DNA of 64,000 nucleotides from Kiritimatiellia bacterium (lineage in GTDB: Bacteria > Verrucomicrobiota > Kiritimatiellia > JAAZAB01), in the NCBI GenBank assembly GCA_040767085.1, contig JAXGPF010000005.1, positions 288,001 through 352,000 on the forward strand, written 5' to 3'. The notes under the pieces were generated by a model. It searched no databases. It saw only the letters and a list, made by a program, of their open reading frames with translations, and was not told where the DNA came from. Shown here piece after piece: positions 5,900 through 56,654 of the stretch. The stretch's first letter is position 1. Each line of letters begins with the position of its first letter. The position numbers were made by a program, and so were the translations under genes.

Positions 5900-6001
5900 A
5901 CACCGAACGCCTTTGACCAGATTACAACCTCAAACAACCGTTGAACCTGCTTCGACCGCTGGCAACCCCGAACACGGAAACACTCTATAAGGAATATCAT
6001 A

Positions 6002-40363: not shown

Positions 40364-40462
40364 CGCCGATTCACCGCCCCCCGCGTGGGGGGCGACGAGG
40401 AAATACAGAAGGACTAAACCAATGAGCAAGTTTCAATCCACGCCCCCCGCGTGGGGGGCGAC
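40364..40462 (-). CRISPR. Orphan type I-C-like mini-array (two repeats, one 33-bp spacer)
   Basis: Full repeat GTCGCCCCCCACGCGGGGGGCGTGGATTGAAAC (minus strand, 40430-40462), spacer 40397-40429, and a degenerate terminal repeat sharing 22 bp (40375-40396). Confidence 0.8.
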
Positions 40463-40672: not shown

Positions 40673-43334
40673 GGGACCATCCCCACGGGCGTGGGGAAAA
40701 CTGTAGACATCCACACGCGCACTGCGGACGGGAGGGACCATCCCCACGGGCGTGGGGAAAACCGCCGGCGCCGTGCCAAAGCCGACCTCCTGGCGGGACC
40801 ATCCCCACGGGCGTGGGGAAAACTTCCGCTGCACCCGCCGCAATAGCGGAATATGCGGACCATCCCCACGGGCGTGGGGAAAACGACGACGCATCAAAGT
40901 CGGATACCAGATATATGGGGACCATCCCCACGGGCGTGGGGAAAACAAAATCCGCCGGGTTGAGACCGGGCAAGCATCCGCCATTGGGGAAAACGCGCGC
41001 AGGCAATCAAGTGGCAATACATCGATACTCCCCACGGGCGTGGGGAAAACCGTTGCAATCGGCCCATCCCTTGGGGAAAACTGGCTTGGGCCCGTCGCAT
41101 AATACCTGATTATGGGACCATCCCCACGGGCGTGGGGAAAACAGCGGTTCCGCCGTCGGACCATCCCCACGGGCGTGGGGAAAACGCCGAACTGGCGAGT
41201 GATAGATCGCAGAGGGACCATCCCCACGGGCGTGGGGAAAACGCCCGACCGGCGCGAGCGTTTTAACGCCGCCGGACCATCCCCACGGTCAATTGCCGGC
41301 GGCAATCTGGCGGGCTATTCCCCACGGGCGTGGGGAAAACAGCACCTGGCCGATCACCCGATCCGGGCGTGCCGGATGGGACCATCCCCACGGGCGTGGG
41401 GAAAACGGCGAGGAAATTACGAATGGGACAGGGCGTGGGGAAAACATTACCACTAAACCAACGGTGATTATATCCACGGGACCATCCCCACGGGCGTGGG
41501 GAAAACTAAATATGCCCGGCAATTTCCGCAGGCGGGGGAAACTCCATTGGGCGCCATCCCCACGGGCGTGGGGAAAACCCAACATTAAGCTCGGGTTTCA
41601 TGGCTGGCGGACCATCCCCACGGGCGTGGGGAAAACGTGGGTTGCATTGTTATCTCCTGGTTGCTGCGGGACGGGCGTGGGGAAAACTGCGGCATGGTTC
41701 AGGGGACTATCCCCACGGGCGTGGGGAAAACTCGCGTTCGCACGGCGTCGGCGCCATCCCCACGGGCGTGGGGAAAACAACGTCCGCGCCATTTTCCATC
41801 CCCACGGGCGTGGGGAAAACCGGCATTTAAATCTGCGAATCCCCACGGGCGTGGGGAAAACCGTGCGAGACGCTTCTCGCCACGGACCATCCCCACGGGC
41901 GTGGGGAAAACAATGCGGAATGAGACCCCCTTGCCGCGTCGGGAGGCCACGGGACGGACGGGCGTGGGGAAACAGTCATCGCCCGCCAACCATCCCCACG
42001 GGCGGGGGAAAACGATAGATTGAAGTGATGGGACCATCCCCACGGGCGTGGGGAAAACCCGATAAATCCGATTTCAACCATCCCCACGGCGTGGGGAAAA
42101 CGATGGGCGGGCGGATAATTCGTTAATCAGGTGGACCATCCCCACGGGCGTGGGGAAAACGACCATTTTTCCAGTCGATTCCCCACGGGCGGGAAAACGG
42201 AATCCCCACGGGCGTGGGGAAAACAACGGCGTCCCCACGGGCGTGGGGAAAACCAGCATAGATCCTGGGGAAAACGTCTGGACCATCCCCACGGGCGTGG
42301 GGAAAACGCGACATTCCCCACGGGCGTGGGGAAAACGAAATGGCACGCTGACCATTTCGGGGAAAACTGTCTTCGGGGGGACCATCCCCACGGGCGTGGG
42401 GAAAACTGTAGGGCTGGGGCATCCAACGGTGGGTTTTCGGACCATCCCCACGGGCGTGGGGAAAACTCGCCATTTGCCGGACGGGATCGGGGACCATCCC
42501 CACGGGCGTGGGGAAAACCGCAGTCATCAAGACCGGACCATCCCCACGGGCGTGGGGAAAACCATTACGGATGGCGGATAATTCGGCGCCGGGGAAAACC
42601 ATATATACTTAATCGTAGGGCGACGGGAAGAGACAGAGACGCCGCATGATCCCATCCCCACGGGCGTGGGGAAAACGCCGATCGCGGCAAGAAAAACGGA
42701 CATTGCCGACCATCCCCACGGGCCTGGGGAAAACAATACAAACGATGCAGCCACGGACCATCCCCACGGGGAAAACGACGGGCGTGGGGAAAACTTTACC
42801 GTCGATAAAGCACATCAGTCATGAGACGGCGGACCATCCCCACGGGCGTGGGGAAAACACCATAAATTTCCCGCCACATGGAATCATCGGACCATCCCCA
42901 CGGGCGTGGGGGAAAACATGACGGAAAGCACCGAAACTCCTGAACCATCCCCACGGGCGTGGGGGAAAACGTTCCGGGTTGAGGGCGATTCCATAACTCC
43001 CGACGGACCATCCCCACGGGCGTGGGGAAAAACATGGTGGCGGCGCGGCCGCGGCGGTGGGACCATCCCCACGGGCGTGGGGAAAACCGGTAACGCCATC
43101 CGGCGGCCGCGTGGGAAACGGGGACCATCCCCACGGGCGTGAAAACGACCGTAATCAGGCAGCTCACCGGACCATCCCCACGGGCGGGGGAAAACTGCCC
43201 GGGGAGAAGAAGATCACGGCAGAACGGGCAGACGGCATACCTGGGGGACCATCCCCACGGGCGTGGGGAACACCAGACGCCCCGCGCCCGGCCGCGCTTC
43301 AGGCACGGACCATCCCCACGGGCGTGGGGAAAAC
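40673..43334 (-). CRISPR. Type I-E CRISPR array, about 55 full or fragmentary repeats, irregular in the middle
   Basis: Repeat GTTTTCCCCACGCCCGTGGGGATGGTCC(S) on the minus strand; 61-bp period at both ends; adjacent to I-E cas genes. Counted by eye. Confidence 0.96.
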
Positions 43335-43399
43335 ACCAAGATATAGGTGTCACTGCTCAAAAGATACCCAAGCCTTTGTGCAGATTCAAGATTGATTTG
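43335..43399 (-). promoter_or_regulatory. CRISPR leader with putative promoter
   Basis: AT-richer 65-bp gap before the first repeat; minus strand TTGAAT-N17-TATCTT at 43389-43361. Confidence 0.55.
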
Positions 43400-44185
43400 T
43401 CAAAGAACCGGATTGAGATGATATGGCGCAGGAGGCAAAACCGGCAGCGGCGCCCTATACCCATCGAAAGATCGTTTTAAAATAACACGTGATAACAGTA
43501 AAAGCGCGCGAACGTCGGCGGCGTTATATTTGAGCAATCGCGCAAGATTTGTTTTTTCATCCGGCATCGCCATATGGCGATGCCACAAGCAGGCGGCTTC
43601 CGCACCATCGCCATCTTCATCCGGCGCGCGCTTGATACCTAATTCATGCTCAATCTTCTTCAATCCACCGACATAACCATAAACGCGAATTTCATGCATC
43701 AGATCAATGTGTGGTGGCGAACACTTTAGTCCGAAGAATTGCGCTATCACCGGCCAGTCAAAACGCATGCCATTAAAAGTTACCAATACTTCAATTTTAC
43801 GTAATATTACGAGAAATTCGGATAAATTCATCCCCCGTATGAATTGCGACATCTGACCGGCTTGCCACAATCCAATCACAGTTAAATCGTCATTAACACC
43901 AAGCCCAGTGGTTTCGATGTCCATAAAAGCCACTCCGGCGGCAAAGTCCGGCCATATTCGCATGCGGTGACCGGGCGGTAGCCTTTTGATAAAATAGTCC
44001 GCCACTCTTCCCGACAAAGCCGCTATTAATTCCGGCATTTGTTCAGTCAAATCCGCCGCCTTACGCGGCGAAAGGACATGTCCGGCAAGCGGCAGACAAT
44101 CCCACGTCAGACATCCTGCTTGCCATAGGCGGCGCTCCGCCGCAGCGGAAATTCCCCGGAAACAACACAGGCTGCGCGTGAGCAT
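43400..44185 (-). CDS. RNase H-fold DEDDy 3'-5' exonuclease (YprB/RNase_H_2-like) with N-terminal HhH-like segment
   Basis: AFMDIETTGL, VTFNGMRFDWP, HIDL, GGLKKIE, YNAADV motifs; TGATG overlap with the cas2 stop. Confidence 0.87.
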   Translation of the reverse strand: MLTRSLCCFRGISAAAERRLWQAGCLTWDCLPLAGHVLSPRKAADLTEQMPELIAALSGRVADYFIKRLPPGHRMRIWPDFAAGVAFMDIETTGLGVNDDLTVIGLWQAGQMSQFIRGMNLSEFLVILRKIEVLVTFNGMRFDWPVIAQFFGLKCSPPHIDLMHEIRVYGYVGGLKKIEHELGIKRAPDEDGDGAEAACLWHRHMAMPDEKTNLARLLKYNAADVRALLLLSRVILKRSFDGYRAPLPVLPPAPYHLNPVL

Positions 44186-44487
44186 CACTCGGTCTCCAGT
44201 TTTTCCGAATCAGCCCACGCTTCAGCCAGTAATTGGAGCCCAGACAATCGCACTTGCCGGCGCGGCGTGTCGCCAAAACATTCAATGCTAAAACCTTGAG
44301 AGGTCCGCTCCGTACCGATGACCAGCATGCCTAGTCCAGGGGCATTCCGGCGAATATATTCCAAAGTTTTGGATCGAGTGCGAGTATTGACACTGCCAAC
44401 AAACACATTTGGCCGGGGCTCAATGAACCAACGTTTAAGCATGCCCCGGATAGCCGGCGGAGTTTCGTTAGTTAGAATAACGGTCAT
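44185..44487 (-). CDS. cas2: Type I-E Cas2
   Basis: PPAIRGMLKRWFIEPRPNVFVG...QGF; 100 aa; follows cas1. Confidence 0.94.
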   Translation of the reverse strand: MTVILTNETPPAIRGMLKRWFIEPRPNVFVGSVNTRTRSKTLEYIRRNAPGLGMLVIGTERTSQGFSIECFGDTPRRQVRLSGLQLLAEAWADSEKLETE

Positions 44488-45323
44488 GCATCCTCAAAGA
44501 GGTTTTCAATGTCTTTCGGCATGCGTTGCAGAAGGCGGCGATCCTCGATATGGAATTTCAACCGTGTAATCACGTCGTCTTCTGTCGCATCCGGTTTCAG
44601 GCCGATGGTTTCGAAAGCCGCCGGCAAGGTAGTTTCCGGCTTATAAATATCGGCAATATCCAGAGCAAATGCCCGCATGGAATTGGTGTGAATGAATCCC
44701 AGCGCCGGCAAATACCCCAGAGCATAAACCACTGAAGTCGTCAGCGCATAAAGCGCGGCATTAGCGGCGGAAACCGCGCGGTTGATGTTGTCGGCCAATT
44801 CCCAATTATTCGGGTTGTAATTGCGGCCTTTCCAAGTCACACCATATCGAACACCTAAATCAGCGTAAAGCGCCTTAACACGGCGACCTTCCATCCCACG
44901 CAATTCTTTTATGGCGATACTTGAGACATCCACACCTGCGAAACGCAGACTGAACATGCGGCGCGCGACAATATCCCGCTTGCTTTTTGACACAGCGAGT
45001 TCCGCCTGACGCCGGGCACGCTCGTTGTCATGAGTTGGCGCAACGCCATGCGCATAAAAATGCGTTCCTTCTGTACCTACCCAACATACGGTTGTGTTGC
45101 ATTCAGAACAGGCCTTTATAGCGGCATGGGTTACAGTAGTTCCCGGACCGAGCAACACCACGCTGAGCGAAGCCACCGGTAAGCGGAACACCGTGCGATC
45201 GGCGCCGATCCATTTCACGCTGGAGTCATCAACTTCAATGCGGCCATGTTCCAGGTAGATCGGCGTCCAGCATTCACGTACCGGAGGAAGTGTTTCCAAC
45301 GGCGGGCGCTCAAACACCGGCAT
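44484..45323 (-). CDS. cas1: Type I-E Cas1
   Basis: LLGPGTTVTHAA, LRGMEGRRV, LGFIHT, DIADIYK. Confidence 0.96.
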   Translation of the reverse strand: MPVFERPPLETLPPVRECWTPIYLEHGRIEVDDSSVKWIGADRTVFRLPVASLSVVLLGPGTTVTHAAIKACSECNTTVCWVGTEGTHFYAHGVAPTHDNERARRQAELAVSKSKRDIVARRMFSLRFAGVDVSSIAIKELRGMEGRRVKALYADLGVRYGVTWKGRNYNPNNWELADNINRAVSAANAALYALTTSVVYALGYLPALGFIHTNSMRAFALDIADIYKPETTLPAAFETIGLKPDATEDDVITRLKFHIEDRRLLQRMPKDIENLFEDA

Positions 45324-45326
45324 GTG

Positions 45327-46013
45327 TCATCCTTCCTGACGCGTGGCGGCTATTTTGCGAATCCGGCGCGGATTGAATTCGCGTGTCGCAAAATTTAACG
45401 GCGAATCCATTAATGTGTCCGTGCCATCGCTAAACGACGTCGCGTCTTCAATCCGCGTGAATTCGGTAAGATTGTGCCCGGCCAAGTCTAATGCCGCCAT
45501 GGCATCCTCGATGGAAGCCGCCACATTGCCGTGCACAATCGGCGAGGCTGGGATGCAGTTTTTGCGCCCGAACCAGACACCCCAACGCGGGTTGCGTAAT
45601 GCCCCGGCAATTTCCTCCAACACTTCTCGTGGCCCGGCCAGGATGACGCCAAACCTGGCATCGAGTAGGTATTGACGACGCGATATGACCGCATCCTTTT
45701 TAATTTTATTTTCGGCGCTGCGGGTACCGCTAACCGTATGAAAGTCATCCAACCGCCTGATTTCCAGCGGCGGACGGGAACCGTCAGGCTGACGCCGGAT
45801 TTCCAGTATTGTCATGCGCAAGGATTCCATGCGCGTCAAACTATTTCGCTCAGCATCGGTTCCTTTTGCTAGACCTTGCGCGGCGCAAATCATGCCGAGC
45901 AGTGCGCTGCGCGTCGGGTGTAAAGCCGTGGTGCGCCGCTGGAATCGGCTGGCGAAGCCAAAGCTCATCAGCGGCGCATCCAGCATGAGCGCGAGATAAG
46001 ATTGTTCAGACAT
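45327..46013 (-). CDS. cas5e: Type I-E Cas5 (CasD)
   Basis: LDAPLMSFG..SRF..R.T..HPTRSALLGMICAAQG, DFHTV, YLLDARF, FGRKNCIP. Confidence 0.94.
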   Translation of the reverse strand: MSEQSYLALMLDAPLMSFGFASRFQRRTTALHPTRSALLGMICAAQGLAKGTDAERNSLTRMESLRMTILEIRRQPDGSRPPLEIRRLDDFHTVSGTRSAENKIKKDAVISRRQYLLDARFGVILAGPREVLEEIAGALRNPRWGVWFGRKNCIPASPIVHGNVAASIEDAMAALDLAGHNLTEFTRIEDATSFSDGTDTLMDSPLNFATREFNPRRIRKIAATRQEG

Positions 46014-47157
46014 GTTTTAAAATCTCTCCGCAAAATTCATCCAATGATCTAACGAGCTTGGCAACTTCCGTGACTGAATCGTTCAATAGTCTATCGGACA
46101 AGGCAACTTCCGCGACTGTTTTGATCCCCCAAGTGTTTTTTAATGCTTTGTGATGTTTTGTTAACTCCGTAATGGATTCATCCACAAACCCGTTTTTTGA
46201 CCTAACCGGTTTCTCGAAGGCATTAACGAGCTGTATCGGCTGACCATGATCCTTGACAATCCCCAGCACATACACTGGCCGCGTGTTTGCATTCATGGAA
46301 TTCTTCCGTGCGCCAGGCACGGCCTGCAATGTTGCGCGGATAAAAGCGTCCACCACTTGCTTGTGTGCTTCCGGGGAAAGCGCTCCGAGATGATCGGCAT
46401 CTGTCAAAAGATCAAGATTAAGAGCAGCGTAGCGGTAATAGCAGGCGGAGTTGAATTCCGCCGTGCCCATATTAGCAGCGCCAGCGTCATCCCCTTTTTG
46501 TTTTTCATCCTCCACTGCCGTCCAGAAATCAAGATCATTGTCTGATTTATGTGTGGAAAGAGCGTGACTGAACATTCCGGCGCCTTCCAACGTCACATCG
46601 CTAGCGTTGGCTACCATACGTCCAAAAATAGCTATGTCGGCAGCGTCTTTTGGGATGCCTTTCCCAAGCGCCTTAATGGCAGCATCTTTCAACAACTTTG
46701 CATCAATACCGGACTTGTCCTGCCGCGCCTTGTGAACCCCCCCGGCTATGATTTTTATTTCTTCCGGTGAAAAATAAAGTAATGTGCTCGTTTGCTCCTG
46801 TTCCGCAGATGACTCTACATCCGCCGGTTTTTTCCCTTTCTTAGCTTTTGGCAGTTCTTTTGCCAAAAATAGATGAAGTACCTCTTCCGCGGTCTTACGT
46901 GCTTCCGACTGATCCCATCCGTACTGACCGACCAACGCCTTTGTTAAATCGTCGGCAGCCTTTCGTGTACGACTTCCCTTGAATGCGGTGTTATTGATTT
47001 CTCGCGCCATCTCCCGGATGGCGCGTTTCTGGCATTGGCTGGAGATGCGGGCACGGGTGCATCCGCCAAAGATGGCGGTTTTGGGCGCATTGACATCATC
47101 ACGGTTGAGGCATGACACGGGGAACGACTGGAGAATATGGAGTTCGATTAATTTCAT
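46006..47157 (-). CDS. cas7e: Type I-E Cas7 (CasC/Cse4)
   Basis: IELHILQSFPVSCLNRDD..APKT..FGG..RARISSQ, DIAIFGRMVA, HALSTH, YYRYA. Confidence 0.96.
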   Translation of the reverse strand: MKLIELHILQSFPVSCLNRDDVNAPKTAIFGGCTRARISSQCQKRAIREMAREINNTAFKGSRTRKAADDLTKALVGQYGWDQSEARKTAEEVLHLFLAKELPKAKKGKKPADVESSAEQEQTSTLLYFSPEEIKIIAGGVHKARQDKSGIDAKLLKDAAIKALGKGIPKDAADIAIFGRMVANASDVTLEGAGMFSHALSTHKSDNDLDFWTAVEDEKQKGDDAGAANMGTAEFNSACYYRYAALNLDLLTDADHLGALSPEAHKQVVDAFIRATLQAVPGARKNSMNANTRPVYVLGIVKDHGQPIQLVNAFEKPVRSKNGFVDESITELTKHHKALKNTWGIKTVAEVALSDRLLNDSVTEVAKLVRSLDEFCGEILKHV

Positions 47158-47218
47158 GTTTTTATCCTCTTGCTTAGTTTGTTTTCACGAAGTTTCCCGG
47201 CAAAGATACAAAACGTTT

Positions 47219-48127
47219 TTATGGATGCAGGCCTCCTTTCGGAATTATTTCCGGCAAGCAGGTGTGGCGGCTCAACTTGTTACGCAACACCTCGTGAAGT
47301 CTCGGTTTATCGCGGGCATACAATGAAACCAGCTTTTTTTCAGCCTGCTGATAGAGTTTTTTCTTTTCCATCATGCCGATTTGATAATCGAGGTTATCCT
47401 CCATGCCCCAATATTCGATGTATAAGTCAAATTCCGGCAGGTAATAATCAGGACGGATGGCATAACCCTTGATTATGCGAAAGCGGTTGTCGTAGCGAAA
47501 AACGATGCCCAACGCCGCGAGTTCCTCGGCAATAATGCGCTCGCCATCGGACTGCACCACCGTGCCATTGCCAGCTTGAATTGTTTTATTCAATTCCACC
47601 TGGGTTTCCCAATTTCGGCGCTTAAGGAAGACTTCATCGAAGCAAATGTCACAATATGTGCGCTGAAAAGCCTTTTGCGACCGCGCATATTCATCGGCCG
47701 CAACCGGTCTGTCACACCGCCCACACTTATGCACGACGCCTTGTTCAGCGATCCGCACGGCTTCGCGGATGGTCTTGCCGGCGGCGATAACGGAGCGCTT
47801 TACATAGTCCTTTTCGGTCGGATTTTGTTGGAGGTCACATAAATCCGGCAAGGCGGATTGGGCCGCTACTCCAAATGCGCCCAACGCCTTAGCGGCATAC
47901 TGTCGCACTTGCGGGTGCTGGTCTGCCAGCAATGGACGCAGCAAGTCCACCGACACCGCGGAGTCCACAATCCCCGCAAGCTTACCAACGGCAGAGGCGG
48001 CCAGACGGCGTACCAAGGGCGACTCCGACCGCGTAAAACCGGCCAATTCGGGCAGGACATCGGCGCCGGCGCTTTCACCAAGCGCAGCGGCACGGGCGGC
48101 AAGTCGTCTTTCATTGGCAATATTCAT
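47219..48127 (-). CDS. HEAT-repeat + Cys4 + PD-(D/E)XK nuclease-like protein inserted in the cas operon
   Basis: PBS-lyase/HEAT repeats (PLVRRLAASAVGKL, PQVRQYAAKALG), CGRC...CDIC, and VQSDGERIIA...RPDYYLPEFDLYIEYWGM. Confidence 0.78.
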   Translation of the reverse strand: MNIANERRLAARAAALGESAGADVLPELAGFTRSESPLVRRLAASAVGKLAGIVDSAVSVDLLRPLLADQHPQVRQYAAKALGAFGVAAQSALPDLCDLQQNPTEKDYVKRSVIAAGKTIREAVRIAEQGVVHKCGRCDRPVAADEYARSQKAFQRTYCDICFDEVFLKRRNWETQVELNKTIQAGNGTVVQSDGERIIAEELAALGIVFRYDNRFRIIKGYAIRPDYYLPEFDLYIEYWGMEDNLDYQIGMMEKKKLYQQAEKKLVSLYARDKPRLHEVLRNKLSRHTCLPEIIPKGGLHP

Positions 48128-48181
48128 AGAGAATATCCACACGACTTTTTACGCGTCTCGGATGACGCTACATCGCGTCGT

Positions 48182-48796
48182 TCAGGCAGACGGAACGATG
48201 GCCAGCAAGCCAAAGCCAAACCCCTTGGCAGAACCGATTCCCCGAAGGAAGGCGGCTTGAAAAGCTGCCGGATCTACTACTGTCAAAACACCATCATACT
48301 CCACGGCATGGTGGAAGCCTGAATTCTTGCGTTTTTCAATTTGAAACCATTCACGCCCTTGCGGAATAATGCACAAGTTTTCCTCATTAACCGCGAAACC
48401 GGACTGCGCGGCCTTGCGCTTGATCCAGTCGGTCTGCTCCTGCGTAGTTCGTAATGGCAAACGTTTACGGCTGACGTTGTCGCGCTTGGTGGGATTGGCG
48501 CGCAGTTGGAAGCGATATTGCCGGTGCTTAAAAAAAGACTGTGGGATTTCACGGGTCTGCCAGGCATCAGCTATGGCGGGCCATCCGTCGGGGCGGACTG
48601 GCGGCCGCGGAGATACAATCAGAAGCCTAAATACTTGATCGCGCGTCCGGTGTTCAAGCCGTGTGAGAAAGTCACGCGGTTCGCCGGCACGATCAGGAAA
48701 AGCAGCCCAGACAAGCTGATGCCAGTCATATACATCGCGGATTTTCAACCGGGCGGCGGTTTCACAATCGAGGAATGCCTGAGTCAGAAATTTCAT
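48182..48796 (-). CDS. cas6e: Type I-E Cas6 (CasE/Cse3)
   Basis: YDWHQLVWAAFP, FQLRANPTK, glycine-rich loop GIGSAKGFGFGLL. Confidence 0.95.
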   Translation of the reverse strand: MKFLTQAFLDCETAARLKIRDVYDWHQLVWAAFPDRAGEPRDFLTRLEHRTRDQVFRLLIVSPRPPVRPDGWPAIADAWQTREIPQSFFKHRQYRFQLRANPTKRDNVSRKRLPLRTTQEQTDWIKRKAAQSGFAVNEENLCIIPQGREWFQIEKRKNSGFHHAVEYDGVLTVVDPAAFQAAFLRGIGSAKGFGFGLLAIVPSA

Positions 48797-49323
48797 AATT
48801 TCGCCTCGGTTGCGGGGGTGGTTTCTTCGGAATCCATCAAGTTGGCCGCAACGCCATCATCCGGCTCAGCGGCACCCCAAAACGACTTAGCCCAAGCGAC
48901 TTGGACATGATCACCCCACCAGAGCAAGTCGGACAGAAGTTGAGTATAATTGACATGCATACCTTTGGCGTGCGCGGCGCGGACAACAGGTACAATCCGT
49001 TCGGGAATTTCATTGAAATCGCAGCTTAAAAGACGTTTTAAGCGACCCTCGAATGAATTATGTTCGCCTTTTAGTTGAGCTAATGTGTCCCCCAGATTTC
49101 CGGCGGAACAAGCCAACTCCGGCGCCATGGCCCAAAGCGCGGCAACCACCTCATACCGCCGGTCGCCGATGGCGTCCTTGAAAGCGCCCAATATAGGCCA
49201 GGCATTGGGACGGCGGGCTTCGCTGAGTGCGCCACGCAAATTGGCAAGCGCGCCGCGATCTTCCTTGTAACGTTGCAGGGAATGAACAAAGGCAACTGCT
49301 AGCGGATGTATCCTTGGGCTCAT
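48793..49323 (-). CDS. cse2: Type I-E Cas11 (CasB/Cse2)
   Basis: DRGALANLR, RLKRLL, VNYTQLLSDLLWW, WAKSFW; follows cse1. Confidence 0.9.
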   Translation of the reverse strand: MSPRIHPLAVAFVHSLQRYKEDRGALANLRGALSEARRPNAWPILGAFKDAIGDRRYEVVAALWAMAPELACSAGNLGDTLAQLKGEHNSFEGRLKRLLSCDFNEIPERIVPVVRAAHAKGMHVNYTQLLSDLLWWGDHVQVAWAKSFWGAAEPDDGVAANLMDSEETTPATEAKL

Positions 49324-50882
49324 GTTTCCTCCTCTTCGACGACGGATTGATTTTCATTGTTTTCGAGCGGCTTGAACAACACTTTCAGCCCCTCACAATA
49401 CGCCCTCATTTGGCGCGGGGTGTCATGCGGGCAGGCTAGTTCGTAGGCATCCCGGGCGGCGCGTGCTAATGCCCGTCCCCATTCTGTGCCGTGCCAGTGT
49501 TCCTTGCCGGAATTATCGGGGTCAAGCAACGCGGGGTTTTTTACTATAACCAGTAACAGTGGCACCTGTTGTTCAATGGCGGTCCAGTAGTGTGCGGCGG
49601 CTTTTTGTTTTATTAGCCCGCCACGCAAGCGTGATTCAGGCCGGCGCAAATCATCTTTAATGGCGGCATGATAATCGGCAACCGCGAAATTGATTTTTTT
49701 GCCCCAGGATTCGGCCTGCGCCACGCCCTGCTGATAAAGTTGCCGGCCGGCATCGGCAAACATTTGCATGGGTACATGTAAAACCGATTCGATGACATCA
49801 ATTATATTAGTGGTTTTTCTAGGCTCATGAACGACCGCGCCGGCAAAAACATCGATGTCAAGATCATCTTCAATATTTTGTAGGACTAATGGTCCGCCCA
49901 GATGATTATTTTGATCATATTTTCGGACAGTTATAACATGCAACTCGCGCCATAACGCCTTGGCGACAGATCCCTCTAATTGCCGTCGTTCGTCATCCCG
50001 GTAAGCGGATTGGTAAATCGTAGCCATTGGATCACGCCAACCGCTATTCGCAAATGAAGGATAATCCAAGGCGCCACCCCAGATCATGGAACGACTGTCC
50101 TGCAAATGCACCGCTCGCGATATTGGCACAAGACGCCCGACATATGTTTTAACTGCATTATCAACGGCCGGATGATCGCCGGGCCCATCGGGCATTAATT
50201 CCCAAACGGGATACCCCCACGCTTGCTTCAGCATGGATACTTGATCTTTATTGATCAAATTCATCCAGATGGAATCCAACAATGAAGTGCGATTTAAAAT
50301 CATCGTGTGAACCATCTTGCCCGCCAAACCAGGCGATGCCGCGTTCCCCGCTTTTTTTGTCCGAACGCCCTTCCACATGCATTCTGAAAGCAGCCCGCCC
50401 GATGAAAACAACTGAAACACCAGCAACATGAGCGCTAATTGCGCAGGCATAAATTCACGCAATTCACCGCCGGCATTGTCAAAAAGCGTCGGCGCGGCCC
50501 CAGTTGCCAATGCGGAATCAAGCTTACTCAACGAAATCAACTTGGTTTCATCCCTGGTGGCGGTGTTACTAACATTGGCCACCTGCAAAAACCGCTGGCC
50601 GTCACCGAAAAGTTCAAAGGCGTGTTTCCATTTGGCGAGATAATCGGCGGCGGCTTGGGGAAGTCTTTTTCGGCAACTCTGCCACTCTTCGCGGTCTTTG
50701 GGGCCATCCAACGCGGCTTGGGCAATGCAGATCAGCAGACGCATGAGCGCAATGCGCTCATGCGGACGCACGGCCAGGTCGCGGATATTTTCGCCATGTT
50801 GAAACACATCCAGCAGGCTGACTTTGCCTGCATGGCCATCATCCCAAACCACCGGAATCCATTTATCAATCGTAAGATTCAT
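49320..50882 (-). CDS. cse1: Type I-E Cas8e (CasA/Cse1)
   Basis: MNLTIDKWIPV, ALMRLL, FELF...RFLQ, ALWR; 520 aa; follows cas3. Confidence 0.92.
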   Translation of the reverse strand: MNLTIDKWIPVVWDDGHAGKVSLLDVFQHGENIRDLAVRPHERIALMRLLICIAQAALDGPKDREEWQSCRKRLPQAAADYLAKWKHAFELFGDGQRFLQVANVSNTATRDETKLISLSKLDSALATGAAPTLFDNAGGELREFMPAQLALMLLVFQLFSSGGLLSECMWKGVRTKKAGNAASPGLAGKMVHTMILNRTSLLDSIWMNLINKDQVSMLKQAWGYPVWELMPDGPGDHPAVDNAVKTYVGRLVPISRAVHLQDSRSMIWGGALDYPSFANSGWRDPMATIYQSAYRDDERRQLEGSVAKALWRELHVITVRKYDQNNHLGGPLVLQNIEDDLDIDVFAGAVVHEPRKTTNIIDVIESVLHVPMQMFADAGRQLYQQGVAQAESWGKKINFAVADYHAAIKDDLRRPESRLRGGLIKQKAAAHYWTAIEQQVPLLLVIVKNPALLDPDNSGKEHWHGTEWGRALARAARDAYELACPHDTPRQMRAYCEGLKVLFKPLENNENQSVVEEEET

Positions 50883-53472
50883 CGTCTTCCTCCTCCATAT
50901 TACGCCCTACCGCGCCGGCGCCAGCCGACCATTTTGGAATAACCACACCCAAGTCATCCCGATAGGTCAAGCCGGATGCTTCACCAGTCGCCAAGCTTAA
51001 AAGTTTTTCGCCATCCAATTTACAGGCCACCATACCATGCCCATGCGTATATTCCCTCAGCCAGTCCGGCACTCGCTGGTGACGAGCTTCCACACACCAG
51101 CACGGCACATTCACCAGGTTGCGATGAATGCTCCGGGCGACGTCCAGACTGAATTTTCCGGTTTTAATTTCGCATTTCTCGCCATTTAGCAGTGTAAAGC
51201 GTGCACCGGTTCTGCCATCCCATGCAAAGATTTTACAGACAAGCAAAACTGCAACCGACGGGCATGAATTCCACCGGGTTTGAACACCTTCTTTATCATC
51301 AAACGCAATTAGCCAAGGATTACCAATGGAAATAGCGGCATTATGCAGTTCTTTACACCGTTCATCCAGTTTTACGCCCAGACTGCGCCAAGCCACCGGC
51401 TCATCATCCGATGGATCGGCATAAGTCGCCTCCAGCAGCGGGCGAATGTCGGCGGGCAAGTTAATTTCGGAATATTTCCGCCATAAATCAAATGTCCGCA
51501 ACAGCACATACGGCGCATATACCTTCGCGCTTTTCCCGAAGGCGGCTTTGATGGCGGCTATATCCGCGGAGCGAAGAGCGGCGGCGGCCAACGCCGGTGA
51601 GGCAATCCACGCCTCCGGCACGTTACAACCGGGGGGACGCGGACGTGGGTGCCGCCAGAGCCGGCCAATGCGCTGGAGCAACATATCCGTGGGGGCCAGA
51701 TCGGTGATCAATAAATCGGCGTCTATATCCACGCTTTGCTCGGCCACCTGTGTGGACACAAGCACGCAGCCTCCGGTTGGCCGGCTGGATTGTTCCTTGC
51801 CCAGCCGTTCCAGCCAGTCTTCTTCCAGTTGCGCGCGCCGGAACTGCGGGAAACGGGCATGCAGCAAGGCAATCTCCGGACCGCCAGCCTGGTTTTGACC
51901 AAGCAAGCGGCGATAAGTTTCCTGGGCATCGTTTACGGTATTGCGGATCCAGAGGACACATGCGCCGCACTTGGCGCGTTCAAGGCAGGACGCTTCTAAT
52001 GCCGCTTGGGGGATGAATCGAAGATGCACCTTCTTTGGTGCATCCGGCGGCACCGGACACCGCACCAGTCCGCCATTGCGGACCGCTGAAATCAATGGAT
52101 AATCCGCGGAGCGCGCCGACACAGTTTTCTCCAGCCCCAGCAATTTTTCCCGCCGGACGGCGGTGAGCGTGGCGGAAAGGATTATGACCGTGGCGCCTAA
52201 TTCACGCAGACGGGTCACAAGCTGATCAATCAACGTTCCGGTGTAAAGATCATAGGAATGGATTTCGTCAAGAATGACAACCTTGCCAGCCAAGCCATAT
52301 TGACGTACGAAAAAATGTTTGGCCGCCACAACCCCAAGCAAGGCCTGATCCACCGTGCCGACGCCGAACGGCGCCAATAGAGCTCGACGCGGCGAAGCAA
52401 ACCAATCGCGGATAGTATAACTTTTCCGATCGGAATTATCGCCGGTAAACTCCGCGCCATTGACGATTTCAGAATCATCCAACAACCATGAATTTCCATG
52501 CGTCAGCCGGACGCCAGCGCCTGGAATGATCCGATCAATAAAATCCGCCACCCGTTTATGAATCCGGTTGCTGGTGACCTGGGTCGGCAGGGCAAAATAA
52601 ATACCCGTGGCCTGGCCTGTGGCAAGTAAATTATAAGCGGCTATCAGCGCGGCTTCCGTTTTGCCGCAGCCCATGGCAGCTTCGATGATATAAACACCAG
52701 GATAACTGACAAGTTCAGAAAATACTTTCTGCATGGCATTAGGCAAAAACGGCGGGAACATGTCAGTAAATATTTTCCCCGCCAAACACGATACGGGCTG
52801 AAATCCAATCCGCTTAAGCTGGGACTCTCCCCGCGCGCGAATGGCGGCGGCATCCAAAATCAAGTCCGGCGGAAATGATGCTTCATCGGACGCCAGCCAA
52901 TCGGCCACAACAATCAGACCGGCATTAAACCATAACTCGCCACAATCGAACTTCACCGGCACATCTGGCAATGGCCCAAATACCTTCAACAATTCATCCA
53001 TCAGGCGGCGGCGTTCCTCCGTCCAAGATTCACCACCGTCGCAAAGCTGATTGATACGATCGCCTTTCAACCTGCCATGATGGGCGCCGACAATCGCTGC
53101 CCAGAAACGCAAGTCATTTTTCACCAAGACATCTTGGAGCGTCTTTTGACTGATTTTGGCATGATCGTCGATCAAGCCCGCAACATCGGCAATGCTTAAA
53201 CCATGCTTTTTCCGCCACATCTGACATTTCACCTGAAATCCCGGCGACACTTTTCCGACATCGTGTAATGCGGCAAGCACAATACCGTTGTGCATTTTTA
53301 ACAAATCGCGCAGCCACACCGGATGTTGCGCGGTTAACAACCCGGCGATAATACCGGCGGTGCGGCAATGCTGCGAAACGGAAATGCCCGGCAATTCATC
53401 CGGCGTTGTCTTGGCCCAGCATTCCGTATATTTGATGTCGTTTCCCATCTCTAAATCGCACCCCCCCCCCAT
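50866..53472 (-). CDS. cas3: Cas3 HD nuclease-helicase
   Basis: LHDVGK, AHHG, VADWLAS, GCGKTEAAL, DEIH, SAT, QRIGRLWRH. The start is ATG 53472 (TAATG overlap) or ATG 53448. Confidence 0.96.
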   Translation of the reverse strand: MGGGCDLEMGNDIKYTECWAKTTPDELPGISVSQHCRTAGIIAGLLTAQHPVWLRDLLKMHNGIVLAALHDVGKVSPGFQVKCQMWRKKHGLSIADVAGLIDDHAKISQKTLQDVLVKNDLRFWAAIVGAHHGRLKGDRINQLCDGGESWTEERRRLMDELLKVFGPLPDVPVKFDCGELWFNAGLIVVADWLASDEASFPPDLILDAAAIRARGESQLKRIGFQPVSCLAGKIFTDMFPPFLPNAMQKVFSELVSYPGVYIIEAAMGCGKTEAALIAAYNLLATGQATGIYFALPTQVTSNRIHKRVADFIDRIIPGAGVRLTHGNSWLLDDSEIVNGAEFTGDNSDRKSYTIRDWFASPRRALLAPFGVGTVDQALLGVVAAKHFFVRQYGLAGKVVILDEIHSYDLYTGTLIDQLVTRLRELGATVIILSATLTAVRREKLLGLEKTVSARSADYPLISAVRNGGLVRCPVPPDAPKKVHLRFIPQAALEASCLERAKCGACVLWIRNTVNDAQETYRRLLGQNQAGGPEIALLHARFPQFRRAQLEEDWLERLGKEQSSRPTGGCVLVSTQVAEQSVDIDADLLITDLAPTDMLLQRIGRLWRHPRPRPPGCNVPEAWIASPALAAAALRSADIAAIKAAFGKSAKVYAPYVLLRTFDLWRKYSEINLPADIRPLLEATYADPSDDEPVAWRSLGVKLDERCKELHNAAISIGNPWLIAFDDKEGVQTRWNSCPSVAVLLVCKIFAWDGRTGARFTLLNGEKCEIKTGKFSLDVARSIHRNLVNVPCWCVEARHQRVPDWLREYTHGHGMVACKLDGEKLLSLATGEASGLTYRDDLGVVIPKWSAGAGAVGRNMEEEDDESYD

Positions 53473-54665
53473 TACACCCGCCGGGCGCCGTGTTTTTCCA
53501 GAATATTCGTAATCTTCCCGAGATCGGCGGCGTTTTTGACGTGGCGGCCGGCAATCAACACAAGATCCCAGATGCGCCCGTTGGGTGTCAGCACCCGCCG
53601 GGACGAGCCGGGCTCCTGGTTGGAATGCGCGGCGTAATATTTGCGGATGTCGTCATGCAACGCCTTTTCCAGGCTCGGCACAATTAGCCGCAATTCCAAC
53701 AGCCGGATCAGGAACGCCTCGGCGGATACGCCGAACCGGTGCTTGATCCGATACAGTAACTCCGGCGTCCATTCGCCCGGGCGCAACCCCAACTGACGCA
53801 CCGTCGCGCATACCGCCGATTCGGGCATGAGGAACAATCCCGCAAACCGCCGGGCCGCCCGCGCTGCCGTAAACAACTTGCCGCGCCGGTCTTTGCCGAC
53901 TTGCGGCCGCGGCAGATGCCGATAATAGGCCGGCGCATGCATATAAAGCCGTCCCAATTCGTAGGCCAACAGGTACAACTGGCGTTCAGCGTTCAGCTTG
54001 ACATCATCCAGGAAGATAAAAGCATTGGCATTTTTTATGTCATGGCAACTGATGCTCTCCACGCCGGGCGGCAGCCGGCAGAAAATCACCCGTAATCCGG
54101 CATTCTCGAACAATTCGAGATAATCGAAGATCACGGCGTCGCTGATGCCCAACAGACGCCGGACCTGCCCGCAAAGCCGCTGCAAACCCTCTTCCGTGCG
54201 GTCAGCCGCCAGCACCAACGGCAATTCGGCGGATTTGACGGCGTGGCTCATGTCTTCCAGCGCCAAAAAAGCGTCCGCCAGCTCGCTGGCCATCCCGCAC
54301 AATTGATGCGGCAAACCGGCCAGTTCACGGCGGGTGCGGGCGGGTAAGGCGCAGGGACCATGCCAGAGTGGTTTTTCCGCAGCCACCATGTACGGTACGC
54401 CGGCTTCACGGGCAACCATGGCGTCCAAACCGCCAACAGGTCCATCCGCCGGCGGAGTAAAGAAAACATCCACCGGTTCGTCCAGGATTCGGGGAAGGGC
54501 GTGCAAAACACGGGCGCCAGGCAGATTGCGCCCTTTTTCGATGCAATTCAAAGGCCCTGGCCGCATGCCCAGCCGCGCCGCCAACTCGGCCTGACTGAGA
54601 TGAGCGCGCAGGCGAACCGCGCGGATATTGGCGCCAACATGCTTTAACGAAGAATCTTTTGGCAT
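53472..54665 (-). CDS. XRE-family HTH regulator fused to an ImmA/IrrE (M78)-like domain with degenerate active site
   Basis: VGANIRAVRLRAHLSQAELAARLG...IEKGRNLP HTH; NAERQLYLLAYELGRL in place of the RFTLAHELGH motif; FAGLFLMP; RFGVSAEA. Alternative starts at 54674/54677. Confidence 0.85.
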   Translation of the reverse strand: MPKDSSLKHVGANIRAVRLRAHLSQAELAARLGMRPGPLNCIEKGRNLPGARVLHALPRILDEPVDVFFTPPADGPVGGLDAMVAREAGVPYMVAAEKPLWHGPCALPARTRRELAGLPHQLCGMASELADAFLALEDMSHAVKSAELPLVLAADRTEEGLQRLCGQVRRLLGISDAVIFDYLELFENAGLRVIFCRLPPGVESISCHDIKNANAFIFLDDVKLNAERQLYLLAYELGRLYMHAPAYYRHLPRPQVGKDRRGKLFTAARAARRFAGLFLMPESAVCATVRQLGLRPGEWTPELLYRIKHRFGVSAEAFLIRLLELRLIVPSLEKALHDDIRKYYAAHSNQEPGSSRRVLTPNGRIWDLVLIAGRHVKNAADLGKITNILEKHGARRV

Positions 54666-54689
54666 GCCGAACATCATGCATGTTTTTAT

Positions 54690-56223
54690 GTTTCCTCACC
54701 AGAATTTGTGGGTGATTACCGGTTCGGGCAATTGCCCAAGGGTATGATATAGCGCCATTTCCGCGCCATGAAAAGTTCTGAAGCCATAAGATCGTTTGGT
54801 AACCACTCGAGCTTTATTGTTCAAGCCCTCGGTTGCGCCAGTAAAAACCTCGTTTCTGGCTCTGATCCAGTTCAAAAGCAGCTCCTCGTGTTTAGCAATG
54901 GTTTTAGCCGCCTTAATGATTGGCGCAATGCGGCTACGACAGGCGCGCTTGACCCATGCCTGGAGATAATTACGCGCCCAGGTTGGGCTGTGATAGCTCC
55001 AAAAATGCTGAAAGCTTTCCTTGAACAAATAGGCGCGGCCGGTTTGCAGTCTTGTGCCCAATATCCGATCAAGCATTTCGCGAGCTTTGCCGCGCACGCG
55101 GGTTTTGCGGCGCAGCAAGGTCCAGCGCATTTTCTTGAGTTTTTGCTTGGCCGCCGGACGCGCTGTCATCGCCGCCATATCCCGGCGCCGGACCTCGTCC
55201 ACGGCGGCATTCAAGGTTTGCACGACATGGAAGCGGTCAATCATGTGGCAACCGTGGCTGAGGCTCGCAGCAATGACTTTCAGATAAGGTCGCCACATAT
55301 CGCTACATATATGTCGAATGCCGGCCAGCACGGGTTTTCCCAAAGATTGCAACCCTTTACGCAGCGCGGCCGCCCGGCGGGTTTGGCCGACCCAGAGCAA
55401 TCGGCGGCATTGCGCATCAATCTGATAGATCAAGGTCAGATAGTTCTTGCTCTTTTTACCGTTGCCTACGTGGAGTTCATCAACACCAATCGCCGTTATA
55501 TTGGCCAATTCCCGGTGCGCCAAGCCCCATTCCACCATCCACTCGACCGACCGATAAACCGCCTGCCAACTGACTTTGAAAATCAGCGCCGTCTCTTTCC
55601 AGGACAACCTCCGCGCCCAGTTCCCCAAAAAAAGCATCAGCGCCTTGCTGTAGGGTCGTTTGCCATCGCTCCAAGGCAGCGCTTCCACCACCACGCCATG
55701 TTCGGGGCAATTTACCCGGCGCGGACTATAATGCAAAAAAGCCGGCACATTCAAAATGGGCACAAACGCCCATATCCGTTCAGGCAGAGTGTCGTATGTC
55801 GCCAGCGGTCGCCCGCAACGCGAGCAGCATGCCGCGCGTTGGCGATGCGGACGAATGCTTATATCCACTTTCCATTGGCCGCGACGATCCAAAACCATAC
55901 AAGTTTCCTGATAAATAAAACGTTTCAAAGGTTGCAAACGATTCAAAATTGTTTTAAGTTTCACCTTGGGCTGGTCCTCCTTTTTTTGTGTTCACCCATT
56001 GCATACGCAATGGATTACGGAAAGGCCAGCCTATTTTTTTGCCGCCGCTTTATCTCCGTTCCGCCATCGCGCCAATCAGGAGTTATTAATCAGGCTGCTG
56101 CGGGGCCGCCAAACGCCCAAAGCGGCAGGCTGTTAATAACTCCACCATCTTTTGGCGCCATTGCTTGGAGAACTTCTTAAACTTTAAAACCTGTTTTTTA
56201 CCCACAAATTCTGGTTAGGAGCC
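54690..56223 (-). mobile_element. ISL3-family insertion sequence, 1534 bp, with 8-bp target duplication
   Basis: Inverted ends GGCTCCTAACCAGAATTTGTGGGT and GTTTCCTCACCAGAATTTGTGGGT; GTTTTTAT duplicated at 54682-54689 and 56224-56231. Confidence 0.92.
54696..55964 (-). CDS. ISL3-family transposase
   Basis: CSRC...RRVNCPEHG zinc finger, IGVDE, CSDMWRPY, DRFHV, EGLNNKA...RSYGFR. Confidence 0.95.
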   Translation of the reverse strand: MKLKTILNRLQPLKRFIYQETCMVLDRRGQWKVDISIRPHRQRAACCSRCGRPLATYDTLPERIWAFVPILNVPAFLHYSPRRVNCPEHGVVVEALPWSDGKRPYSKALMLFLGNWARRLSWKETALIFKVSWQAVYRSVEWMVEWGLAHRELANITAIGVDELHVGNGKKSKNYLTLIYQIDAQCRRLLWVGQTRRAAALRKGLQSLGKPVLAGIRHICSDMWRPYLKVIAASLSHGCHMIDRFHVVQTLNAAVDEVRRRDMAAMTARPAAKQKLKKMRWTLLRRKTRVRGKAREMLDRILGTRLQTGRAYLFKESFQHFWSYHSPTWARNYLQAWVKRACRSRIAPIIKAAKTIAKHEELLLNWIRARNEVFTGATEGLNNKARVVTKRSYGFRTFHGAEMALYHTLGQLPEPVITHKFW

Positions 56224-56654
56224 GTTTTTATTAATATGTCAAATTTTTTTTGCAATATATTTCATGTATTTACAAAGCTGTATCATGCTTGCGGCTCACG
56301 AGACATTCGCCCTCCAGTTGGGGGCAAAGGTGTAGGTTTTTTGGAGGGCGAGCGTCCACGCGAGCCGTCAGCCCTGGCGGAACGTCAAGCATGACGCAGT
56401 CCTGCATGTATTTCCCGAATTTTGTTTTTCCTGAATTTTGCACGCGCTATGATTGCTTTAAATCATTTCTAAACCAATATTCGTGCAAAATTCAGGTTTT
56501 TAATACTTGACAGTGATGATACTGCTGGTAGATTAAATATGCTTCTTCGCGAAGCTTCGCAACGAGGCGGAAGTGATACTGCGCTTCCCGCGCACATGCA
56601 ACATATCGCCATGCCGCCCGATTACATAATGCGCTTTCGCGCGATTGACAACGC

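Follow-up and report, generated by a model that had tools for sequence, protein, structure and literature searches.

Three apparently separable accessory genes in a predicted complete CRISPR-Cas locus of type I-E from an uncultured bacterium

We analyzed a 64,000-nucleotide (nt) stretch of DNA, here called the window (positions 288,001-352,000 of contig JAXGPF010000005.1), from an uncultured bacterium of the Planctomycetes-Verrucomicrobia-Chlamydiae (PVC) group, and in it a CRISPR-Cas locus of type I-E that includes three non-canonical genes; all coordinates below are window positions. The source genome (4.08 Mb in 28 contigs) is 95% complete, and metagenome-assembled genomes with near-identical proteins carry the labels Lentisphaerae, Kiritimatiellia, or Verrucomicrobiota. 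As a preliminary description of the window had claimed, the locus is one co-oriented run from an XRE-type regulator gene to the CRISPR array: eleven open reading frames (ORFs) on the minus strand, from 54677 to 43400, followed by a leader and the array. The ORFs are, in order, the regulator gene, cas3, cse1, cse2, cas6e, a gene for a HEAT-repeat protein with a nuclease-like domain (the HEAT gene), cas7, cas5, cas1, cas2, and an exonuclease gene. The stop/start overlaps described earlier, TAATG between the regulator stop and the cas3 start and TGATG between the cas2 stop and the exonuclease start, are present, and the three non-canonical genes amid the cas genes are real and intact. Junctions within the operon overlap or leave at most 3 nt, except for the two beside the HEAT gene, which measure 54 and 61 nt; an inserted cassette would look like this. 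Over the HEAT gene, the exonuclease gene, and the cas genes there were 0 differences from public metagenome contigs obtained from sludge, landfill, and anaerobic digester material in four studies, and because contigs from four studies cover them without a difference, they are not assembly errors. A consensus scan for promoters and terminators between 43200 and 55000 returned fewer sites than shuffled sequences did and hence was uninformative; an Rfam scan between 38000 and 57000 found no family at gathering score, the CRISPR-DR families included.

Judged by its protein families, the locus is a complete type I-E system, with Cas3, the Cascade subunits Cse1-Cse2-Cas6e-Cas7-Cas5, Cas1-Cas2, a leader, and an array. 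The eight cas genes all lie on the minus strand. The cas3 gene (50866-53472) encodes 868 amino acids (aa) with an HD nuclease and an SF2 helicase part, matching Pfam Cas3_HD (6.5e-24), DEAD, and Cas3-like_C_2 (4.6e-35) and NCBIfam cas3_core (3.7e-56) and cas3_HD. It is followed by cse1/cas8e for the large subunit (49320-50882, 520 aa; Pfam CRISPR_Cse1 4.6e-61, TIGR02547 1.9e-41), cse2/cas11e for the small subunit (48793-49323, 176 aa; Pfam CRISPR_Cse2 3.9e-16, TIGR02548 above cut-off), and cas6e (48182-48796, 204 aa; Pfam CRISPR_assoc 1.6e-42, TIGR01907 1.4e-38). Beyond the HEAT gene come cas7e (46006-47157, 383 aa; Pfam Cas_CT1975 2.2e-97, TIGR01869 1.2e-80), cas5e (45327-46013, 228 aa; Pfam Cas_Cas5d 2e-37, TIGR01868 2.2e-36), cas1e (44484-45323, 279 aa; TIGR03638 cas1_ECOLI 3.4e-92, above cut-off), and cas2e (44185-44487, 100 aa; Pfam Cas_Cas2CT1978 4.6e-22, TIGR01873 1.7e-20). 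All eight passed the Pfam gathering scores, and all but Cas3 passed the NCBIfam cut-offs for I-E equivalogs; Cas3 reached 314.9 bits of the 569 set for the full-length I-E equivalog and was above cut-off for both cas3_core and cas3_HD. The locus resembles the canonical I-E systems of Escherichia coli K-12 and Thermus thermophilus in having the same eight cas families, no cas4 (none of the 11 operon proteins matched Cas4 in Pfam or NCBIfam), a palindromic 29-nt repeat, and 61-nt units where the array is regular. It differs from them in its gene order, cas3-cse1-cse2-cas6e-cas7-cas5-cas1-cas2, and in its three added genes and an insertion sequence (IS) element at the 5' end. The placement of cas6e before cas7 was seen in all related loci examined (L094-L102), and the same order is known from actinobacterial I-E loci.

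The preliminary description had presented the operon with its three added genes as a candidate undescribed I-E variant; that the three form a single package is not borne out by their distribution. Our phylum sample consisted of 401 genomes, 43 of them Cas7e-positive (the I-E genomes), and 14 genomes served as controls; genomes and loci are designated by G and L numbers, G000 being the source genome and G320 a genome of the same genus (locus L104). Among the 43 I-E genomes, the exonuclease gene followed cas2 in nine, the HEAT gene was in the locus in nine (decayed in two), both were present in seven, and the regulator gene stood at cas3 in four. All three occurred together only in G000 and G320, that is, within one genus. 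The loci in which the HEAT gene and the exonuclease gene co-occur are close relatives, so that most of this co-occurrence reflects shared ancestry. On gene content the locus is, we conclude, a modular variant of I-E with separable add-ons and not a distinct subtype or a new kind of system. The reading that we favor, and which we regard as probable, is that a complete I-E system carries three separate add-ons, each circulating independently among the type I loci of this bacterial class: a cas2-coupled trimmer, a cas regulator, and a nomadic HEAT nuclease. The identities and conserved residues of these genes, their recurrence, and their positions in related loci are observations; all of the biochemical roles we infer.

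The HEAT gene (47219-48127 from its ATG, minus strand; the longest ORF begins with a GTG at 48142) encodes 302 aa that combine HEAT repeats, a Cys4 zinc ribbon, and a Vsr-like PD-(D/E)xK nuclease domain, and it matches Pfam HEAT_2. The word undescribed, which the preliminary description used for the candidate variant, is too strong for this gene: PADLOC-DB v2 (2023) already contains the model PDLC01150, HEAT_CxxC_PD-DEXK, which has the same three-part architecture and of which positions 1-286 of 288 aligned with residues 6-292 of the protein (E=3.1e-125). Because this match runs end to end, the family is already catalogued, although the library offers a name only. Our literature search found nothing on this HEAT-CxxC nuclease family or its function in cas loci, and it may have been listed elsewhere before. 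The Cys4 assignment held, since C135, C138, C159, and C162 were invariant in 24 of 24 aligned homologs (33-90% identical) and again in 29 of 29; further invariant residues are E196, D213, R225-P226-D227, D234, and E238.

In AlphaFold2 models of the whole HEAT-nuclease and of its C-terminal 174 residues (pLDDT 84 and 85, respectively), residues 3-129 form a HEAT solenoid, followed by a zinc ribbon that has a long helix and by an alpha/beta domain. With the full-length protein, profile searches of the Protein Data Bank (PDB) and Foldseek searches returned only HEAT and alphaRep repeat proteins, and Foldseek with the C-terminal domain found nothing at E<=1e-3. VIA-align, run with the C-terminal domain against 48,161 chains, ranked Vsr-like PD-(D/E)xK folds at the top: a RAP-domain protein and the catalytic domain of the homing endonuclease I-Bth0305I (3r3p; Z 8.7), then Vsr (1cw0; 8.2), followed by DUF559 (3hrl; 7.9), VRR-NUC (7.9), TnsA (7.0), Bax1, and Hjc. 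Being mid-range and tied, these scores support a fold class and no particular enzyme. In the ESM Atlas the C-terminal part matched unnamed clusters (0.93) and DUF559 (0.89), which we take as a lead only. The modeling supports a Vsr-like PD-(D/E)xK nuclease fold for the C-terminal domain, with conserved acidic residues and predicted catalysis. Its C-terminal 110 residues share with the Vsr/DUF559/I-Bth0305I/RAP branch the fold (88-97 residues aligned, root-mean-square deviation 3.0-3.3) and a conserved E...D...E constellation. The protein stands apart from that branch in that its sequence matched none of the solved nucleases significantly, in having no lysine at the canonical ExK position (the motif reads IEYWG), and in carrying a Cys4 ribbon and a HEAT domain ahead of the nuclease domain.

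The PADLOC model for the HEAT-nuclease had matches in 61 of the 401 phylum genomes and in none of the 14 controls; the highest copy number in a single genome was four. We examined the surroundings of the gene in two overlapping sets: 33 loci from a species-representative collection, in which neighbors were identified by tblastn with the window proteins and by PADLOC and Pfam scans, and the 30 loci that scored best in the phylum sample. The first set contained eight I-E operons, five I-C operons (including that of the cultured Geothermobacter hydrogeniphilus HR-1), one I-G locus, 11 loci with no cas neighbor, seven too short for judgment, and one distant match to the nuclease domain only. Cas-adjacent copies thus made up 14 of the 25 evaluable loci in this set and 15 of the 30 in the other, far above random placement. 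I-E loci have the gene in one of three places: flanked by cas6e and cas7, as in the window, flanked by cse1 and cse2, or upstream of cas3. Its places in I-C are upstream of cas3 and between cas7 and cas4, and in I-G it adjoins cas4-cas1 or cas3. Across these subtypes the protein remains 58-83% identical to the window copy, and its constraint equals that of Cas1, with, for example, 79-81% identity where Cas7 shows 52-72% and Cse1 48-55%. In a maximum-likelihood tree of 59 distinct sequences the contexts were interleaved, and no fewer than 15 changes from cas to non-cas surroundings or back were needed.

This distribution makes a partnership with Cascade, as had been suggested, unlikely: the gene takes three positions in I-E, two in I-C, and others in I-G, and half of its copies stand outside cas loci. 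A Cascade subunit would be expected at a fixed position and to vary together with the Cascade of one subtype, and neither pattern was found; the gene is absent from the loci of 34 of the 43 I-E genomes. We read the HEAT gene as a mobile, strongly constrained, putative endonuclease gene that appears to be drawn to Cas3-containing loci and to be independent of CRISPR. With low certainty, we propose that its product would carry out auxiliary DNA cutting or end processing, co-expressed with Cas3 and Cascade, and that the HEAT domain would provide a protein-docking surface, the protein not being a stoichiometric Cascade subunit. A more specific proposal, to which we attach little probability, is that the HEAT-nuclease serves type I systems of any subtype as an accessory whose conserved HEAT surface would dock on something that I-E, I-C, and I-G interference share, either Cas3 or its single-stranded DNA or R-loop products. 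The enzyme would turn the DNA nicked or unwound by Cas3 into double-strand breaks or prespacer-sized fragments and so couple interference with primed adaptation; with the MrfB-like trimmer it would then form a prespacer line independent of Cas4 and of host nucleases. Two other roles were considered. A function as a Cas4 substitute was rejected, as the gene adjoins cas4 in I-C and I-G loci, and a Rosmer-like toxin-antitoxin pairing of the regulator with the HEAT-nuclease was set aside, the two genes being adjacent only in L010 and L105 and mostly apart.

The gene directly after cas2 (43400-44185 from its ATG, minus strand) encodes a 261-aa protein of the MrfB/YprB-like DEDDy 3'-5' exonuclease type, which matches Pfam RNase_H_2 (PF13482) at 1e-27 and 97.6 bits (cut-off 22) and has an extra N-terminal region of ~85 aa. 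The earlier DEDDy assignment was confirmed by D89, E91, D143, Y220, and D224, invariant in 31 of 31 sequences, the third motif being Y220-x3-D224. The closest solved relative is MrfB (PDB 8un9; E=7.7e-12, profile positions 83-237), and relatives carry the JGI name 'YprB with RNaseH-like and TPR domain'. In the protein itself, Pfam and NCBIfam revealed no TPR family. Like MrfB (YprB) of Bacillus subtilis, its best solved relative for the exonuclease domain, it belongs to PF13482; unlike MrfB it has no detected TPR, no adjoining gene for an MrfA/YprA helicase, and a different N-terminus, and its neighbors are cas2 and the CRISPR leader. The family occurs in 37 of the 401 phylum genomes. We examined 30 phylum loci and 80 metagenome loci, and the gene stood directly after cas1e-cas2e in eight of the former, the window's included, and directly after cas2e in two of the latter; one additional case at a contig end (G356) brings the I-E genomes with this arrangement to nine of 43, far above random placement. 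In most related loci the cas2 stop and the exonuclease start overlap or are at most 3 nt apart, with exonucleases 33-83% identical to that of the window. No match to the exonuclease was found in the six HEAT-bearing I-C and I-G loci examined, all of which have cas4.

Given this recurrence after cas2e, the suggestion that the exonuclease is an adaptation helper was a reasonable one. In other subtypes prespacers are trimmed by Cas4, and in E. coli by host DnaQ-type exonucleases (DnaQ/ExoT). The enzyme here probably works in trans to trim prespacers: active-looking and translationally coupled to Cas2, it would trim the 3' overhangs of prespacers gripped by Cas1-Cas2. Predictions of a complex between Cas2 and the exonuclease, made with two alignments, scored 0.00 and count neither way. 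A precedent is the natural Cas2/DEDDh fusion, a 'trimmer-integrase' of Megasphaera-type I-E, which, according to the part of the report drawn on here, trims prespacers and removes the protospacer adjacent motif (PAM) (Wang et al. 2023, PMC10284694); there, stand-alone DEDDh exonucleases are also said to be common as ancillary components. As far as that part describes the fusion, the two cases agree in having a 3'-5' exonuclease tied genetically to Cas2, in a subtype lacking Cas4, and with the same expected task. They differ in that the exonuclease here is a separate polypeptide of the MrfB/YprB-like PF13482 family, of the tyrosine type (DEDDy) rather than DEDDh, with the additional N-terminal region. 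Beyond one unrelated mention, our literature search found nothing on YprB-type exonucleases with CRISPR, and an earlier listing may exist elsewhere.

The regulator gene at the head of the operon (53472-54677, minus strand) encodes a 401-aa protein in which an XRE-type helix-turn-helix (HTH) domain (Pfam HTH_3/HTH_31, above cut-off) is fused to an M78 (ImmA/IrrE)-like domain. The preliminary description had labeled it XRE-IrrE*, in agreement with a match to Pfam Peptidase_M78 of 36.8 bits (cut-off 22) over residues 191-326 and profile positions 2-122 of 123. At what we take to be the HExxH position, assigned by our reading of the M78 consensus and by the range of the Pfam alignment, the protein reads YELGR, and neither histidine was present in any of 31 aligned homologs. 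Because the zinc-binding HExxH is absent, a protease mechanism like that of ImmA, IrrE, or CapP is doubtful. The nearest PADLOC model was RmrA (3.5e-19), with capP at 1e-7; the consulted part of one report describes RmrA as an HTH plus ImmA protease antitoxin of RosmerTA (PMC10440598). The window protein shares with RmrA, ImmR/ImmA, and CapH/CapP the N-terminal XRE-type HTH and the ImmA/IrrE (M78) fold domain, and differs from them in lacking HExxH, in having cas3 as its conserved neighbor, and in showing no obvious toxin partner.

Homologs of the regulator occurred in 25 of the 401 genomes, all of the same class. We scored neighbors within 1.5 kb at the 27 loci concerned and found I-E-type cas3 at five, I-C cas3 at four (one with a HEAT gene between), cas4 at one, and only a weak cas1-like match at one (L107). 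The gene following the regulator is cas3 or, in L010 and L105, the HEAT gene, and the arrangement recurs in three further I-C loci (L005, L010, and L013). Flanking of cas3 in nine of 27 loci is far above random placement, and where homologs were at least 42% identical the proportion was nine of 13; to call the gene a regulatory module was, accordingly, a reasonable reading. We propose that the protein would act as a DNA-binding transcription factor of the cas operon, with an M78-like domain that probably senses a signal or binds a partner rather than cleaving. The literature yielded nothing on XRE/ImmA-like genes upstream of cas3, and such genes may have been listed elsewhere.

Immediately beyond the regulator gene lies an ISL3-family insertion sequence of ~1.54 kb (54685-56227, minus strand; transposase ORF 54696-55964, Pfam DDE_Tnp_ISL3, E=1.1e-60), whose ends bear imperfect inverted repeats of ~24 nt and which is accompanied by a direct target duplication of 8 bp, ATAAAAAC. 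It lies ~8 nt upstream of the XRE start and is co-oriented with the operon. In the same-genus genome G320 (L104) its flanks are contiguous, the element being absent at that site. The source genome has at least 22 full-length copies that are 100% identical, which is an IS burst. The element does not belong to the CRISPR system; because it has come between the operon and the DNA that ancestrally lay upstream, the native promoter and operator have been displaced.

Several observations weigh against the favored reading, and they concern all three genes. Half of the HEAT copies stand outside cas loci, adjoining housekeeping genes such as polA, cinA-recA, lon, a carB-like gene, a UvrD-like helicase gene, a tRNA synthetase gene, and others. 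Where the best HEAT copy of a genome was non-cas, six of 15 genomes (93-98% complete) had no Cas3-core match at E<=1e-10. Decayed HEAT fragments lie between cas6e and cas7 in L097 (4306-4770) and between cse1 and cse2 in L100 (4284-4667), with the cas genes intact. Because of the non-cas copies, the Cas3-less genomes, and these remnants, the HEAT gene is dispensable for I-E function, and it may contribute nothing to CRISPR. As to the exonuclease, no I-E cas1 or cas2 was nearby at 22 of 30 loci in the phylum sample and at 78 of 80 in metagenomes, and the protein gave a marginal match to the PADLOC DEDDh model PDLC01247 (E=6.8e-4, profile positions 63-105 of 139). As to the regulator, 16 of the 27 loci had no cas gene within 1.5 kb, and in the source genome its control of the operon may have been altered by the IS insertion.

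Of the alternatives, the one with the most in its favor, although we still think it unlikely, is that the HEAT gene encodes a selfish endonuclease, spreads by homing or some other kind of mobility, lodges between conserved genes (those of cas loci among them), and is useless to CRISPR immunity. Its best structural matches do include the catalytic domain of a homing endonuclease, but a Z of 8 to 9 tied with those of Vsr, DUF559, and RAP domains makes that match unspecific. The multiple copies per genome, the decayed copies, the frequent context switches, the presence of the gene in genomes lacking Cas3, and its occupation of the only intergenic gaps of the operon would all suit such an element, as would near-identical pairs that differ in context (for example L071, in I-C, and L072, non-cas) and the highly conserved nature of the non-cas neighbors (polA in three loci, recA, lon, carB-like, and tRNA synthetase genes). 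Cas loci, however, account for far less than 1% of a genome and contain half of the copies, at six positions in three subtypes, unlike the products of site-specific homing. The whole protein is strongly conserved, the HEAT domain included, and 2.9 million viral contigs contained no full-length copy, the 13 matches among them being partial and confined to the nuclease domain. As side observations on these neighborhoods, the HEAT gene lies directly downstream of polA in L064, L065, and L067 (~1500-2390 in each), which represent three genomes of two families, and directly upstream of cinA-recA in one genome (L027, 9956-13380); the polA and recA neighbors hint at a replication or repair role for the stand-alone HEAT-nuclease. 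In L016 a match to the cas-associated DEDDh model (5178-5978; 5.4e-28) lies 4 kb from a non-cas HEAT copy, with no cas genes detected between.

A second alternative, which we hold to be rather improbable, views the HEAT-nuclease as a stand-alone innate defense gene, with the HEAT part as sensor and the nuclease as effector, that lies near CRISPR-Cas only as the members of a defense island lie near one another, and shares its regulation. Matches of the nuclease domain to the PADLOC defense candidates PDC-S69 (1.2e-15) and PDC-S68 (1.8e-09) point in this direction, as do a non-cas copy adjoining a mad3/LmuB-like ATPase gene (L020) and the RmrA-like XRE-M78 gene immediately before the HEAT gene in L010 and L105. 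The non-cas neighbors are nevertheless mostly housekeeping genes, 10 of the 11 scanned loci without cas genes had no PADLOC matches next to them, and the HEAT gene sits inside cas operons, among translationally coupled genes, rather than alongside them.

That the exonuclease is an ordinary MrfB-like repair enzyme, placed after cas2 by chance and with no role in spacer acquisition, we consider quite improbable. Most of its relatives are not linked to cas genes, and the characterized member of the family, MrfB/YprB, is a 3'-5' DNA exonuclease of a repair pathway in the portion of the report consulted (PMC12458937). The position after cas2e, usually with an overlap, nevertheless recurs among exonucleases as little as 33% and up to 83% identical to that of the window; an adjoining MrfA-type helicase gene and a TPR match are both missing here; and among the loci examined with cas genes the exonuclease was found only in I-E loci lacking Cas4. 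The weakest alternative, that the three genes form one coherent and obligate new I-E sub-variant in which a regulator, an extra effector, and a trimmer work with Cascade, can draw on the single tightly packed, co-oriented operon in which all three lie here and in G320 and on the HEAT gene in seven of the nine I-E genomes with the exonuclease, but it is very improbable indeed, as all three meet in only two of 43 I-E genomes, the seven co-occurring genomes are close kin rather than independent cases (Cas1 71-92% identical to that of the window), the HEAT gene shifts position within I-E and appears also in I-C and I-G, and single genes occur apart, with the exonuclease but no HEAT gene in G326 and G053, the regulator only in G023, the HEAT gene with no exonuclease match genome-wide in G349, and, in G358, an I-E contig that ends inside cas7, short of the cas2 end, and a sole exonuclease match on another contig with no adjoining cas genes.

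Under the reading that we favor, of separate add-ons to a complete I-E system, a counterpart in concept is known for each of the three, and a public library of models already includes one of them. New here are the clade of MrfB-type, cas2-coupled exonucleases and the record of how the HEAT-nuclease behaves in three subtypes and away from CRISPR, both of which may have been described before. Type I-E is the best-studied CRISPR system, and the making and trimming of prespacers without Cas4 has so far been credited to host exonucleases or to the rare Cas2/DEDDh fusion. A cas2-linked MrfB-like exonuclease, apparently hard-wired in a whole clade, would be the natural in trans counterpart of that fusion. 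The HEAT-nuclease offers a clean case for asking whether CRISPR-linked genes are helpers, independent defense genes, or hitchhikers, and XRE/M78-like proteins that lack the zinc site and flank cas3 suggest an unexplored switch for type I loci. Nothing in these results alters the concept of a CRISPR system, and we regard their value as moderate.

Downstream of the exonuclease stop, a leader of ~65 nt (43335-43399, minus strand) extends to the first repeat and shows no promoter-like site by consensus scan. The array (40674-43334, minus strand) is built on an I-E-type palindromic repeat with a 28-nt core and a variable 29th base, and it contains 22 exact cores. Only five of the 21 spacings between exact cores measure 60-62 nt; the regular part consists of the last five cores at the trailer end (40674-40946), spaced 61-62 nt. 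Elsewhere there are truncated repeats, spacers down to ~10 nt, and units of 18-139 nt, and the first 9 nt of the repeat were counted 48 times versus 29 for the last 13. Contigs of ~86-91 nt with the same repeat, from four metagenome runs, had inter-repeat sequences of 27-33 nt, mostly unlike those of the window. The resolution of >22 identical 1.5-kb IS copies suggests a long-read assembly. We think that the irregular array is probably a consensus of reads from strains with differing spacers, collapsed along its whole length but for the old trailer end that the strains share; if so, the array would be diversifying in nature. In E. coli I-E the last base of the repeat is derived from the PAM, and the same may hold here for the 29th base, which among the exact cores is C in 12, G in eight, and A in two. 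Three patterns derived from spacers gave 0 matches when compared with viral contigs.

Just past the trailer end are clusters of short hairpin repeats with GC stems: 27-nt palindromic tandem units (39432-39580 and 39864-39939) and two identical 22-nt hairpins, 66 nt apart (40375-40396 and 40441-40462). All of these, for which no Rfam family matched, look like repetitive extragenic palindromic (REP) elements.

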